Part shown: positions 37,417 through 53,598 of the stretch, one piece after another | Layout of the letters: each line of letters starts with the position of its first letter | Numbering within the stretch: position 1 is the stretch's first letter | DNA from: an uncultured Rivularia sp. | GTDB taxonomy: Bacteria; Cyanobacteriota; Cyanobacteriia; Cyanobacteriales; Nostocaceae | Reading direction: 5' to 3' | DNA length: 64,000 nt | Assembly: GCA_963665115.1 (NCBI GenBank) | Contig: OY762007.1 | Span: 3,552,001 to 3,616,000 of the forward strand | Translations under genes and position numbers: made by a program | Notes under the pieces: generated by a model | Told to the model about the DNA's origin: nothing | The model's input: the letters and a program-made list of their open reading frames with translations, nothing else | Database searches by the model: none

Positions 37417-38008
37417 TTATTCTTCTTGATTCGTAAAATCAACTTGTTCGTAAAGCTCGCTAAGTTGAATTTGCAAGTCAATTGTTTGCAGCGATAAAGT
37501 TTTTTCTTTTCCTTCTAATTCTGTTAATAACCATTTATTTTCGGCAGTTTTAACGTACTGCATAACATAATAGTTATACTGGTCTATTAAAATATATTCT
37601 TTAAATTCTGGAATCGAGCGATAATATAAAAATTTATCTCCTTGGTCATAATTCTTAGTAGATTTTGATAATACTTCAGCTATTAAAGAAGGATTCATCA
37701 CCGTGGTTGTATTAGTTCCTGTATAAACAGGTTCTCCCTCAATTAGCATTACCTATTTGATAAGTATGTTGACGATATCTTGGTATCCATAATCTCACAT
37801 CTGACATATAAACATCATATTTTTGACCTCTAAGGGTAATTTTTAATGATGCTGCAAGATTTAATGTAATTTTATTATGATTGGTGGTGCCACCTATAAT
37901 TGGGACAATTTCCCCGTCGCGATATTCGCCTCTAAATTCGGTATTTTCTTCAAGTTCTAAATATTGTTCGGGTGTATAAAAATTTTTTTTAATTTCTAAC
38001 TGCATCAC
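37417..38008 (-). pseudogene. Uma2 family endonuclease, frameshifted at ~37752-37760
   Basis: YTPEQYLELE, EYRDGEI, GGTTNHN, DVRLWIP then IAEVLSKST..YD.GDKF.YYRSIP..EYILIDQ in another frame; the YPD motif is disrupted. Confidence 0.85.
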
Positions 38009-42038: not shown

Positions 42039-43339
42039 ATGACTAATGATTTAGCGGAGCAACTGTTGGAAGTCGCTATGAAGGCTGGTGCGACTGAAGC
42101 AGAGGTTTATCAATCGCGATCGCTTTCTAAGCCGGTGTTTTTTGAAGCAAATCGTCTTAAACAACTTGAAAGCAATCAGAGTACGGGAACTGCATTACGG
42201 TTATGGTATCAAGGTCGTCCGGGACTTACTGTAGCAAATGGGGCCCTGCGGAAGCTGGGACAATGGTTGAACGGGCTATTGCTTTGAGTCAGTTAAATCA
42301 GCCCGAAGAAGCTAAATTAACTGGGTTATCTCAACTTGTTTATCCGAATTTGGGTGAAGATGTACCACCACAAAAGTTGGTGGAGTGGGGCAAGCAAACT
42401 ATCGCTTTGATTCGCGATGTCTACCCCGATGCGATTTGTAATGGTGATTGGGAATGCGATGTTGAAACTACTCGATTGGTGAATACGAAAGGCTTGGATT
42501 CTCACTATACCGATACTACCCTTAGCTGTTATACTTCCGCAGAATGGGTACGGGGTGATGATTTTCTGAGCGTTGCTGACGGACAAACCGAAAGGGGAAA
42601 ACTCAATCCAGATACATTAGCTCAGCAAATTTTACAGCGCTTGCATTGGGCACAATCAAATGTAGAAGCACCATCAAATAAAATTCCGGTTTTGTTCACT
42701 TCTAAAGCTGCTGATATGCTTTGGGGTACTTTGCAAGCTGCACTCAACGGTAAACGGGTGTTGGAAGGATCTTCCCCTTGGGCAGAACGTATTGATAAAC
42801 CAGTGATTTCACCCGAACTTACACTTTATCAAGATCCTACCGCAGGGCCTTACAGTTGTCCCTTCGATGATGAAGGTACGCCCACCACAGATTTAGTTTT
42901 TATTGAAGACGGAATATTGCAAAATTTTTATTGCGATCGCGCTACGGGAAATCAGTTGGGAATGAATACTACGGGTAATGGTTTTCGCCCTAGTTTAAGT
43001 AGTTATCCGACTCCTGGCTTATTTAATTTTTTGATTAAACCAGGAAGTGGCAGCTTGCAAGAATTGATCGAAGGAATGAATGACGGTTTGATTGTAGACC
43101 AGATGCTCGGCGGGGGTGGAGAAATTTCTGGCGATTTTTCTATCAACATCGATTTGGGCTATCGCGTCCAAAATGGTCAAGTTACCGGACGCATCAAAGA
43201 TACTATGGTATCGGGCAATATTTATACCGCACTAAAACAGTTAATTAAACTTGGTGGTGATGCTGATTGGAATGGCTCTTGCTATACTCCGTCTTTGATA
43301 GTTGATGGATTATCTAGTACTGGGAAAAGTAGTTCGTAG
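42039..43339 (+). pseudogene. TldD/PmbA family metalloprotease, frameshifted in GGGGCCC at ~42240-42246 (probably a sequencing error)
   Basis: AEVYQSRS..PVFFEANRLKQLE, ALRLW..GRPG; then PFDDEG.PT, TTGNGFR, SGDFS, KDTMVSGN. Confidence 0.88.
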
Positions 43340-46827: not shown

Positions 46828-47802
46828 ATGAACAAACGTGAAGAATTGCAAAAACTCGTCGATTTTCTAGAGGAGAAGATATTGCACTTACGGATGGCTA
46901 AGGTTACTGAAACCGATGCTTTAGCTATATTTAAAGCGGAAAAGCAGATTGAGGAAGCAGAAGCGGAACGGGATAGCATTAAACAAGAGATTGAAAATCA
47001 AAACACTTCAGCGAATAGTCGCAATTTATACAATGCTTTATTAAAACTTGGCTATCGCGAACAAGTACTGTTGTTCATAAAATTTCTCAAAAAACAATCC
47101 ATAGCAACATTTCTGCTCCACGGCTCACCAGATTATGGACAGCGTTGGTTACTGAATCGATTAATTACTCAACATATTCACCATGGTGCTACGGGTAAGT
47201 TGGTGCGAGTTCAACTCAACCGCATCGCACGCAGAAGCGATATTACTGCTTTATGGCGAGAATTAGGAGGTAGAGTGGGTTCAATTGGAACAAAACCTAC
47301 ACCCTCAGAGGTTGTTGAGCAAGTTTATAGGTGGTGGCAAACTCAAAATGTGATTTTGGTGTTTCACGATGTCGATTGTATGCCGCAGGAGTATTTACAG
47401 GAATTAATTCAGGAGTTTTGGCTACCATTGGCAAATCAAGCACGAAAGGTTGTTTCTGAATACCAGCTACTGATGTTTTTGGTAGATTATGAAGGTTTTA
47501 TTGGTACCCAGAACACCTTGTTTGTGGAAAAATTAGAACCTACTTGGGAACCGAAAATTCCGATTAAATTACCATCGATTACTCAATTTTGCGATCGCAC
47601 TTTAAATGAGTGGATTGAGACGGTAGAAATTGAATTTGATACCTTGCCTCTTATAGAAGCGATCAATAATACTGAAGATCAATTAGTCAAGGAAATATTA
47701 GACAATAGTGAAAATGGTGTTCCAGAACTAGCAATGTTAGAAATTTGTCACCTATGTGGCTGTAATTGGTATGAAGAGAAAGACAGATGGCTCAAACACT
47801 GA
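46828..47802 (+). CDS. Effector-associated-domain (EAD) + inactive STAND NTPase (iSTAND) component of a ternary conflict system
   Basis: N-terminal helical adaptor; degenerate P-loop LLHGSPDYGQRWLLNRL, VILVFHDV, LLMFLVD; overlaps the moxR start. Confidence 0.8.
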   Translation: MNKREELQKLVDFLEEKILHLRMAKVTETDALAIFKAEKQIEEAEAERDSIKQEIENQNTSANSRNLYNALLKLGYREQVLLFIKFLKKQSIATFLLHGSPDYGQRWLLNRLITQHIHHGATGKLVRVQLNRIARRSDITALWRELGGRVGSIGTKPTPSEVVEQVYRWWQTQNVILVFHDVDCMPQEYLQELIQEFWLPLANQARKVVSEYQLLMFLVDYEGFIGTQNTLFVEKLEPTWEPKIPIKLPSITQFCDRTLNEWIETVEIEFDTLPLIEAINNTEDQLVKEILDNSENGVPELAMLEICHLCGCNWYEEKDRWLKH

Positions 47803-48874: not shown

Positions 48875-50230
48875 ATGAACACAAACGAACTGCCCCTCCA
48901 AGAACTCTTCACCAAATTAAGGGAAGCAGGTTTACCGCTCGGGATTGATGAGTATCAGTTAGTTTTGCGATCTTTGCAAGCAGGGTTTGGTGTTGCTGAC
49001 AAAGCTGCTTTGAAACGTTTGTGTCAAACTTTATGGGCTAAATCTGCTGAGGAAAAGTCTATCTTGGATTATCACTTTGAACAAGTGATGGTTAACGATG
49101 CAGCTGGGGTTGCATCAGAAACAGATAATCAAACTATTAATAAATTTCGTATTGTTCCTCTGGTAATTTTGGGAATATTAGCAGGTGGAATTATTTTTGG
49201 TGTTAGAGTCAGCCACAAACCACGAACTACACAAACAATCTCAACACCAACCCCAATAGCAACGGCAACTCCGGAACCACAACCACCCCAACAACCAGCA
49301 ACCGAGCCAGATCTAGCGAACACACAGCCAGAACAACCAACTCAGCCGGTAGAACCTATTCCTCGCACAATGCAGCCAAATTTTGCGATTTGGATGATTC
49401 TATTCCTTACAGCTACAACTTGTGAATATTTAGTTTATCGCTGGATAACTCATTGGTTGTCTAAACGCAAGCCTAAACCAAATTCTTCTGCTTCTGCTCC
49501 ACCAGAAACCAGTAAAGATGAGGTACAAGTAGTAAAATCAGTATTGCAAGGTAGCAGTAAACATTGGAGTAGTGAATTCTTTCCTGTTACCCAACGGCAA
49601 ATGAAACAGATGTGGCGTTATTTACGCCGTCCTGTACGTGAGGGGAAAGCTACGGAGTTGGATGTGGAGGCAACGGTTAACCACATTGGACATGAGGGTA
49701 TGTTGCTCGAACCTGTGTTGATTCCACCCAGGGTAAACCGGGCAGAATTACTGTTACTAATTGACCAAGACGGTTCTATGGTACCTTTCCATGCTTTATC
49801 ACAAAGATTAGCAGAAACTGCCTTACGAGGAGGTCGTTTGGGCAGAACTGGTATTTATTACTTTCACAATTGCCCTGTTGAATATCTGTACCGCGATTCC
49901 TATCATCAGCAAGGGGAATTAGTCAGCTATATTCTTAATCATGTTTGCTCTGGACGCACGGCTGTGTTAATTTTTAGCGATGCTGGTGCTGCTCGCGGTG
50001 ACAATAGCCAGGAGCGTTACCAATTAACTCAAGAATTTCTTACCAATTTAAAACAACGGGTACGTTACATTGCTTGGCTCAATCCCCTGCCAAAAAACCG
50101 TTGGTTTGGCACTACAGCAGGTGAAATATCTAGCCTTGTCCCGATGTTTGAAGTCAGTCGAACGGGTTTGCAGGATGCTATTAGTATACTCAGCGGACGC
50201 TCTACAAATTTTGAGGGGCACAGGAAATGA
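48875..50230 (+). CDS. vWA-domain protein of a MoxR ternary system, with a two-TM / Pro-Gln-Thr insert
   Basis: LFTKLREAGLPLGIDEY N-terminus, ELDVEATV, MIDAS-like LIDQDGSM, IFSDAGAARG, WLNP. Confidence 0.88.
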   Translation: MNTNELPLQELFTKLREAGLPLGIDEYQLVLRSLQAGFGVADKAALKRLCQTLWAKSAEEKSILDYHFEQVMVNDAAGVASETDNQTINKFRIVPLVILGILAGGIIFGVRVSHKPRTTQTISTPTPIATATPEPQPPQQPATEPDLANTQPEQPTQPVEPIPRTMQPNFAIWMILFLTATTCEYLVYRWITHWLSKRKPKPNSSASAPPETSKDEVQVVKSVLQGSSKHWSSEFFPVTQRQMKQMWRYLRRPVREGKATELDVEATVNHIGHEGMLLEPVLIPPRVNRAELLLLIDQDGSMVPFHALSQRLAETALRGGRLGRTGIYYFHNCPVEYLYRDSYHQQGELVSYILNHVCSGRTAVLIFSDAGAARGDNSQERYQLTQEFLTNLKQRVRYIAWLNPLPKNRWFGTTAGEISSLVPMFEVSRTGLQDAISILSGRSTNFEGHRK

Positions 50231-51970: not shown

Positions 51971-51983
51971 CCGCCGAAGGCGG
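51971..51983 (+). promoter_or_regulatory. CCGCC-GAA-GGCGG hairpin (DGR cis-acting stem-loop and/or terminator)
   Basis: Perfect 5-bp GC stem with GAA triloop ~40 nt after the stop codon, followed by a T-tract. Confidence 0.6.
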
Positions 51984-52803: not shown

Positions 52804-53598
52804 ATGTTCCCACAACACCAATTTAACGAACTGCAAAACCTCTACGAATTACTAGAAGAGAAAATAATTCGCTTGCGAACAGCTAAAGCTATCGAAACAA
52901 GTGCAGCAGTTATTTTCCAATTAGAAAAGCAGATTCAAGAAGCCGAAGCGGAACGAGATAAAGTAGCTCAAGAAATTGCCCAATTCAATCAACAACAACC
53001 TACCTTTATTACAAGCAACAACAGTAATCAAACTGATATCAAAACAATTTTAATTCTCGCTGCAAATCCCAAAAATACCTCAAGATTGCGATTAGAAGAA
53101 GAAATCAGAGAAATTGATGAAGGGTTGCGACGGGCTAACAAGCGAGAGCAATTCAAACTAGAGATGAAATTAGCGGTGCGTCAACGAGACTTCTACCGAG
53201 CAATTTTAGATACTCAGCCCCAGATTGTTCATTTCTGCGGACATGGTGCGGGAGAAGATGGCATCATTTTGGAAGATGAAATGGGAATAACAGCTTTTGT
53301 ACAAGCAGATACTTTGGCGAGTTTGTTTAAGCTATTCGCCAACAAGGGAGTAGAGTGTGTTGTGCTAAACGCTTGTTATTCAGAAGTTCAAGCCAACGCT
53401 ATCAGCCAACATATTAACCATGTAATTGGGATGAATCGAGCAATTGGGGATAAAGCAGCGATTAATTTTGCCGTAGCTTTTTACGATGCTTTAGCTGCTG
53501 GGGAAGATGTAGAATTTGCTTTTGAGTTAGGTTGTTCTCAACTAGTTGGTTTAAAAGAAAATCAAACCCCTACACTTAGAATAAAAAATACGCAATAA
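52804..53598 (+). CDS. EAD + CHAT (caspase-like) peptidase
   Basis: ILILAANP..TSRLRLEEE, PQIVHFCGHG (His), VVLNACYS (Cys), AVAFYDAL; N-terminal 50 aa homologous to the iSTAND N-terminus. Confidence 0.9.
   Translation: MFPQHQFNELQNLYELLEEKIIRLRTAKAIETSAAVIFQLEKQIQEAEAERDKVAQEIAQFNQQQPTFITSNNSNQTDIKTILILAANPKNTSRLRLEEEIREIDEGLRRANKREQFKLEMKLAVRQRDFYRAILDTQPQIVHFCGHGAGEDGIILEDEMGITAFVQADTLASLFKLFANKGVECVVLNACYSEVQANAISQHINHVIGMNRAIGDKAAINFAVAFYDALAAGEDVEFAFELGCSQLVGLKENQTPTLRIKNTQ

Follow-up and report, generated by a model that had tools for sequence, protein, structure and literature searches.

The window, by which we mean the whole 64,000-nucleotide stretch of an uncultured Rivularia sp. genome analysed here, holds a same-strand series of genes that runs from a hairpin–iSTAND gene (46828) through those for a MoxR-type ATPase (47787), a CoxE-type vWA protein (48875), an FGS protein and a Uma2 protein to a hairpin–CHAT gene (Table 1), with the CHAT-borne hairpin copy lying ~6 kb downstream of the iSTAND-borne one. 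Both hairpin-bearing genes begin where the preliminary description placed them, with an ATG at 46828 and at 52804. The iSTAND domain itself occupies 47038-47481 (residues 71-218), C-terminal to hairpin residues 1-59; the gene is the sole iSTAND match in its genome, the MoxR and vWA genes of the cluster are the only close matches to each, and five other CHAT paralogues occur in the genome, all of them without a hairpin. The order iSTAND, MoxR, vWA is conserved in a Rivularia assembly (L124) and in Calothrix rhizosoleniae (L126), which has the same cluster. Among the matches listed, at least four loci from a pattern scan with the two-copy alignment (the 16-row alignment being too diverse for a pattern), the Rivularia assembly is the closest named one; its genes come in the order seen in the window, and its hairpin is 92% identical.

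Table 1. Features of the hairpin–iSTAND/hairpin–CHAT locus, in window positions
Feature	Position	Strand	Evidence and remarks
Predicted hairpin adaptor, copy 1	46828..47004	+	residues 1-59 of iSTAND protein; 65 bits with 45-row clade profile
Hairpin + iSTAND protein, 324 aa	46828..47802	+	PF19995 109 bits, cut-off 24
MoxR-type AAA+ ATPase, 308 aa	47787..48713	+	AAA_5 51 bits; start overlaps iSTAND gene end by 16 nt
CoxE-type vWA protein, 451 aa from ATG	48875..50230	+	VWA_CoxE 47.7 bits
Conserved N-terminal region + C-terminal FGS (FGE-sulfatase fold), 567 aa	50227..51930	+	FGE-sulfatase 172 bits
Uma2 restriction-endonuclease-fold protein, 219 aa	52120..52779	+	PF05685 86 bits; between cluster and protease gene
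Predicted hairpin adaptor, copy 2	52810..52989	+	residues 3-62 of CHAT protein; IET turn between predicted helices; Pfam EAD9 18.2 bits
Hairpin + linker (residues 65-76) + CHAT caspase-like protease, 264 aa	52804..53598	+	CHAT PF12770 49.6 bits

The MoxR-type ATPase, whose relatives come after the iSTAND gene in related loci as well, scores 100 bits with the MadB-family ATPase model, which is under that model's cut-off, and the vWA protein has one strong and one weaker hydrophobic segment (hydropathy peaks of 2.28 at residue 93 and 1.53 at residue 170). In the 50227 ORF, residues 1-235 match the gene 3' of vWA in related loci, and from passages of Kaur 2021 (PMC8195603) we infer the label vWA-L for this N-terminal region; the FGS domain spans residues 310-556, and the part behind the conserved region varies in length and content among loci, with three CHAT domains in L084, for example. 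A DGR template repeat that could serve the variable tip of the FGS protein was sought in the genome and none was found. The Uma2 gene, which occupies the same position in L124 and persists as a remnant in L126, may be taken as a candidate member only of the system, inserted between the cluster and the CHAT gene. A terminator-like stem lies at 51971, 5' of the Uma2 and CHAT genes, in a scan whose counts stayed at shuffle level (9 terminator sites vs 7.2 expected, 18 promoters vs 16.4). NCBIfam and PADLOC hold no family name for the iSTAND protein, and PADLOC has no model for the vWA or FGS proteins either; a role of the cluster against invaders is predicted.

In Calothrix rhizosoleniae, a ~130 bp insert (L126:10120-10250) with imperfect terminal inverted repeats and a MITE-like look splits the hairpin of the orthologous CHAT gene, while the iSTAND copy and the remaining cluster seem intact. 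In the Rivularia assembly, the FGS gene (L124:7550-9108) and the downstream porin gene (L124:10829-12788) each extend over two frames, which could be real breaks or assembly errors. Elsewhere in the window, a gene at 42039-43339, which we take to be TldD/PmbA-like, seems split into overlapping ORFs of 82 and 378 aa, suggesting a frameshift, and adjacent short ORFs on the minus strand at 37417-38008 (89 and 110 aa) resemble halves of one Uma2-type gene.

The shared N-terminal module

Residues 6-55 of the 46828 ORF and residues 9-58 of the 52804 ORF (codons 46843-46992 and 52828-52977) align without gaps at 32/50 identical and 37/50 similar positions (BLASTP, E 1e-15), as expected from the preliminary description of a ~50-aa N-terminal segment common to the iSTAND and CHAT proteins; its statement that the remainder of the two proteins is unrelated holds as well, with no second segment aligned better than E 0.5 in the same search. 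Across the 8.69 Mb genome, tblastn and an HMM of the two copies run on 71,447 six-frame ORFs return these two copies only, at ~114 bits vs 14.6 bits (E 0.11) for the next match, and a 45-row clade profile gives them 76 and 65 bits with the next at 12, so that three genome-wide searches yielded no further copy of the module. The pair as a whole is absent from the repeat finder's 20 largest families. Between the copies, 106/150 nt are identical, and a dN of 0.26 against a dS of 1.12 (dN/dS ~0.23) means that the protein is conserved beyond the DNA; the ratio against orthologues is 0.24-0.25, computed on just 3 to 7 changes per class and with one comparison lacking any synonymous change. A recent DNA duplication as the source of the two copies is ruled out by the dS of 1.12. 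As judged from these comparisons, the duplication that gave the two hairpin copies is an old one, with the protein retained under purifying selection.

For the 60-residue CHAT copy, AlphaFold2 with a 16-row alignment predicts an antiparallel alpha-hairpin of helices 2-28 and 32-57 with a three-residue turn between them (mean pLDDT 97), in keeping with the two-helix module first proposed; in the full CHAT protein the linker that follows, residues 65-76, has a pLDDT below 50. The shared module is thus predicted to be an alpha-helical hairpin of 55-60 residues and, from the model, probably non-enzymatic. Foldseek retrieved many generic hairpins from the PDB and no match at E<=0.001, and three unnamed clusters of the ESM Atlas at 0.85 provide a lead only. 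In the 45-row alignment, conservation at non-heptad positions (CHAT numbering) marks K20 (42/45), R25 (36), I30 (36), E31 (36), F38 (37) and Q43 (39), residues that may form a binding surface near the turn. Membership of the Death-like superfamily (Death, DED, CARD, Pyrin, bDLD1-3) is rejected, since the model has two helices and not six and neither copy has a Death-like profile match. Because EAD9, the related family discussed below, matches itself alone and no Death-like family in Supplementary file 1 of Kaur 2021 (PMC8195603), the earlier comparison with Death domains survives as an analogy but not as homology.

The two-copy profile matched 57 longer proteins, comprising 26 iSTAND, 26 CHAT, 1 LRR and 1 metallophosphoesterase protein and 3 without a family. 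With the 16-row profile, 25/401 genomes of a phylum sample were matched, as were 1063 cluster representatives at E<=0.001 (260 at 1e-10). From the best 150 of these 1063, the 102 of at least 150 aa were scanned (48 shorter ones omitted) with Pfam at E<=1e-5, giving overlapping partner classes of 12 TIR, 10 CHAT, 10 STAND/NACHT/AAA, 6 iSTAND, 1 VMAP, 3 SIR2, 3 GUN4 and 2 FGS; another adaptor (EAD1, EAD7, EAD8 or bDLD1) is present in 14/102, and 28/102 have no family. The hairpin stands at a protein terminus in 97/102 representatives, a share inflated by truncated metagenome proteins.

An effector-associated domain (EAD), as defined in passages of Kaur 2020 (PMC7159879), lies at the terminus of a VMAP, iSTAND, Ubl or GAP1 core, with further copies on effectors, greater likeness between neighbours and a correlation with the cognate core. 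With 60 residues and two helices, the module is as small and as largely alpha-helical as an EAD should be; it precedes PF19995 in the core protein (residues 1-59), and further copies sit on effector or signalling domains, on CHAT nearby and on TIR, CHAT, SIR2 and STAND partners. These features support, at the level of sequence, an effector-associated domain common to the iSTAND core protein and the CHAT protease, and the immune-type partner domains and terminal position bear out the EAD assignment of the preliminary description.

Hairpin–iSTAND proteins occur in 11 loci (10 of 40 fetched neighbourhoods and the window), in 10 of which MoxR and vWA adjoin them, one MoxR being a fragment; the eleventh locus is a remnant. 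A second hairpin ORF lies within ~7 kb in 8/11, on CHAT in 4 (including the window), on TIR in 1, on trypsin in 1 and as a short ORF in 2. Among the sampled genomes, iSTAND is present in 18/25 that bear the clade vs 26/376 that do not, a difference confounded by lineage, and inside the window's own family in 11/14 clade genomes vs 15/32 (p 0.06). The hairpin is fused to iSTAND in 11/25 clade genomes, and 7/25 have no iSTAND match; the anticipated enrichment near MoxR and vWA genes therefore describes the hairpin–iSTAND loci but not every genome with the clade. Strong copies also occur in four genomes of 99-100% completeness (G149, G430, G508, G106) that gave no match to iSTAND and none to MoxR at 1e-20 with the window query; the proteins that carry them there are of STAND-TPR, NACHT-HEAT, AAA-like, CHAT, caspase and SNF2 type. 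VMAP-C as an alternative core was found in 0/5 genomes, by a search that matched nowhere and had no positive control.

Other arrangements of the hairpin were seen as well. In two genomes (L089:8483-11581 and L123:8002-11637), a CHAT+hairpin gene is followed by one for a hairpin+FHA protein of ~740 aa; the stretch fetched around them contains neither MoxR nor vWA, and the pair may be an EAD-coupled system in its own right. A caspase+hairpin gene adjoins one for an SNF2 helicase+hairpin protein in L119:8405-11502 and L019 (G106, a genome without an iSTAND match or close MoxR). One protein (P0102) consists of a ParA/MinD-like NTPase and then three to four tandem hairpins, and a CobW-family GTPase, of housekeeping type and not obviously immune, is the fusion partner of the hairpin in L023:469-1716 and P0181.

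Relation to EAD9

Against Pfam EAD9 (PF19962, cut-off 25), the CHAT copy scores 18.2 bits and the iSTAND copy gives no hit at E<=1, and strict membership of the window copies is rejected on these scores. The HMM of the two copies, which the preliminary description proposed as a check, located only two genome copies and mostly iSTAND and CHAT partners. At the level of the clade, EAD9 is matched by 30/45 members at E<=0.1, with the next family at 4/45; some members pass the cut-off (L020 27.3, L014 28.8, L087 26.8 and L089 30.4 bits), of which L020 and L014 are matches of the two-copy profile, and 9/102 representatives pass it on the hairpin-bearing stretch. Homology to EAD9 is found by profile together with transitive links. 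Comparison by hhalign with 13 and 27 EAD9 members gave probabilities of 54% and 78% (E 1e-4 and 2e-5), figures obtained without a coiled-coil control; HMMs built from the same 13 and 27 members did not place the window copies among their top genome ORFs, and the EAD9 model at E<=1 also matched in 9/14 control genomes. In a 92-row tree, 65 clade rows stand apart from 27 Pfam-scored EAD9 rows at 99/97, in an alignment of 60 columns with a midpoint root, groups chosen by profile and bootstrap unsettled; the split speaks against nesting inside the EAD9 clade. The genomes with the strongest EAD9 matches (G114, G182, G214, G284) showed no clade match.

Clade and canonical EAD9 share a length of ~60 residues, the same register with at most one gap, and an arrangement in which the N-terminus of iSTAND or VMAP carries one copy and a neighbouring protease or TIR gene another. 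Among the 15 scanned of 22 canonical two-copy loci, the fusions are 13 iSTAND and 2 VMAP, and the 12 scanned neighbours comprise 8 trypsin, 1 TIR, 1 CHAT, 1 nucleoside phosphorylase and 1 unnamed protein. The signatures differ (K-x3-LR-x4-IET-x6-F-x-L-E-x-Q-I in the clade vs Y-x5-Q-L-x2-T in EAD9), as do the preferred partners, which are CHAT, caspase and TIR in the clade vs trypsin in canonical EAD9; unlike in canonical EAD9, the protease copy of the window is N-terminal, in a gene downstream of the cluster. We therefore hold with high confidence that the module is an EAD-type adaptor related to EAD9 and, because the window copies fall under the Pfam cut-off, that the clade is likely a divergent sister of EAD9. 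The earlier alternative of 'EAD9-like or an unnamed EAD' is accordingly settled in part, with the relation to EAD9 upheld by the 30/45 matches and the shared wiring while both copies remain under the Pfam cut-off. The 2021 tables (PMC8195603) list EAD9+CASPASE+bDLD3 and TIR+EAD9 proteins for cyanobacteria, and the authors' own EAD9 may already include the clade. Since the clade profile recovers many proteins unlabelled by Pfam, EAD9-like wiring in cyanobacteria is undercounted.

A bolder and rather doubtful possibility is that the clade constitutes a separate adaptor channel. It would then be an alpha-hairpin EAD that has neither a name nor a Death fold, that is orthogonal to canonical EAD9 and that Pfam mostly overlooks. 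Such a channel would connect proteases, TIR and SIR2 enzymes with iSTAND, VMAP and STAND cores, and also with gene pairs that lack MoxR (CHAT+hairpin and hairpin+FHA; caspase+hairpin and SNF2+hairpin). Were this so, proteins that combine the hairpin with EAD9, EAD1, EAD7, EAD8 or bDLD1 would link one channel to another as converters. Candidate converters are P0082 and P0214, in each of which a single chain has a clade hairpin as well as canonical EAD9 (50 and 62 bits).

The CHAT protease and its proposed coupling to the iSTAND core

The CHAT protein contains the motifs HFCGHG and NACYS, with the second His of the former, H147 (53242-53244), as the catalytic His and Cys191 (53374-53376) as the Cys of the dyad; aligned CHAT relatives keep H147 in 29/30 and C191 in 30/30, and the dyad is thus as intact as first reported. 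By sequence profile, 8TL0 alone in the PDB is a significant relative (E 8e-24), and it also ranks first by fold (E 7e-12, 27% identity); this entry is SAVED-CHAT (PMC11417357). H147 and C191 map onto H375 and C422 of SAVED-CHAT, with a constant numbering offset of 20, counted by hand. From a His-Cys dyad on a caspase fold, as the PF12770 and 8TL0 matches indicate, the protein is predicted to be proteolytic. A dedicated substrate gene was not evident at the locus.

The copy closest to that of the core protein is the one on its own locus partner in 20/28 loci with two copies (17/22 for canonical EAD9, 3/6 for this clade), and the window pair ranks first of 28. A permutation test on means gives p 0.016, with kin not independent. 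Such partner matching fits co-adapted pairs but also local duplication, and shared ancestry would by itself produce it. In the tree, the iSTAND copies of the Rivularia-like lineage and its CHAT copies fall into separate supported groups (7 rows at 100/94 and 6 rows at 100/87), which indicates that the pair has been co-inherited since before the strains split. Six CHAT-borne copies (P0034, P0039, P0040, P0041, P0043, P0045) have an iSTAND-type turn, by retention, convergence or gene conversion.

We propose that the two hairpins pair, probably as a four-helix bundle, and that their pairing would tether the CHAT protease to the iSTAND–MoxR–vWA assembly. The complex would sense an invader through the iSTAND or FGS domain and be remodelled by MoxR; the tethered CHAT domains could then cluster and switch on, like SAVED-CHAT on filament formation, and the active protease would cleave one particular target, for which the vWA or FGS components are the most plausible candidates, and so release or arm it. 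We infer the hairpin–hairpin binding, the trigger, the sign of control and the substrate, and we attach different weight to the steps: direct binding of the copies to each other seems probable, and for the whole reading, in which CHAT is activated by clustering rather than repressed, we see a slight balance in favour. Tethering is supported by the two conserved copies, the sole iSTAND core, the intact dyad, a terminal family on immune-type domains and the same pairing in canonical EAD9 loci. Against the tethering and activation reading stand the scores of the window copies under the EAD9 cut-off, the own partner being first in only 3/6 clade loci, the co-occurrence with iSTAND inside the window's own family (p 0.06), the four genomes without iSTAND, the lack of an evident substrate gene and the terminator-like stem that precedes the Uma2 and CHAT genes.

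The same architecture is compatible with either sign of control, and the hairpins could instead bind but hold the protease off, with iSTAND sequestering CHAT until the protease is released through MoxR remodelling or by a phage protein. Deletion of the sensor CARD-like domain in a Lysobacter system led to toxicity (PMC10312443), and passages of Kaur 2020 (PMC7159879) expect such systems to be off by default, both of which would suit a repressive hairpin. We nevertheless consider repression unlikely: the nearest CHAT that has been characterised stays inactive until it oligomerises, so that an inhibitor is not needed, and genes for hairpin-bearing effectors are retained where a genome has no iSTAND match, which is awkward for a lethal protease restrained by the core.

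The copies may also not be mutual binders at all, each homodimerising its own protein or docking on a third partner such as MoxR or vWA. The separate groups of iSTAND and CHAT copies in the Rivularia-like lineage imply constraints of their own on each, and the conserved surface-type residues K20, R25, I30, E31, F38 and Q43 could suit any partner, but partner-specific similarity in 20/28 loci and adjacent-gene copies with no MoxR or vWA nearby (the CHAT/FHA pairs of two genomes and the caspase/SNF2 pair) make such independence of the copies improbable to us. The view that the module is a generic coiled coil, or else a relic left without function by local duplication, draws on the commonness of the fold, for which Foldseek returned many hairpins and none at E<=0.001, and on weak EAD9 scores that may partly reflect composition, as the matches in control genomes suggest. 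The module, however, keeps to one register over its 60 residues and is conserved at positions outside the heptads, no other coiled coil of the genome rises above 15 bits, the dN/dS values between the copies and, on few changes, against orthologues argue against a relic, and immune-type partners recur among the 1063 clusters. Because this family pattern is the published EAD pattern, we exclude a generic coiled coil, which the preliminary description had named as its refuter, to the point of regarding it and the relic as very improbable.

Comparison with known systems

For a specialist the locus is expected rather than surprising, a clean test case and not a new system. The system type, the EAD principle and the pairing of an EAD-protease with iSTAND have all been published as predictions; what is new here is a divergent adaptor clade undercounted by Pfam and a minimal two-copy test case. 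Within open-access text, our search found no paper that puts EAD9 or an iSTAND system to an experimental test. The genome is unusually clean in this respect, with one iSTAND–MoxR–vWA cluster, two adaptor copies and five CHAT paralogues without an adaptor, and the protease belongs to a group whose best-studied member switches on by clustering.

The locus resembles the iSTAND–MoxR–vWA systems in passages of two papers (PMC7159879, PMC8195603) in its order of iSTAND, MoxR and CoxE-type vWA genes, the EAD at the iSTAND N-terminus, the FGS effector as the variable part behind the vWA region, the hydrophobic segments of the vWA protein and the second EAD on a caspase-like peptidase. In these sources, FGS is the commonest effector of iSTAND ternary systems and four EADs are found on iSTAND N-termini (Kaur 2020, PMC7159879), where coupling of effectors to cores by homotypic EAD interaction was also proposed in 2020; a linker-plus-effector on a separate gene, as in the window, characterises a minority of the published systems. 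In structure, the locus differs in the adaptor subtype and the inserted Uma2 gene only, within a class that is itself a computational prediction.

SAVED-CHAT, encoded at a type III-B CRISPR locus of Haliangium ochraceum (8TL0), likewise has a control module at its N-terminus, connected to the CHAT domain by a flexible linker; the module is the nucleotide-binding SAVED domain there and a bare hairpin here. Filament formation activates that CHAT, which then cuts one specific partner (10.1101/2023.06.23.546230); no PCaspase-like substrate was identified beside the window CHAT gene. Similarly, in the bacterial CARD-like system of Wein et al. (PMC10312443), one small helical adaptor type is found on both sensor and protease, and passages of that work report that the CARD-like domains are needed for defence in the NLR-like sensor/protease pair. 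The CARD-like domains have a Death fold, in contrast to the predicted two-helix hairpin of the window, and the two are not homologous; on the proposed reading, a plain hairpin would here take over the role that Death-fold domains have in animals.
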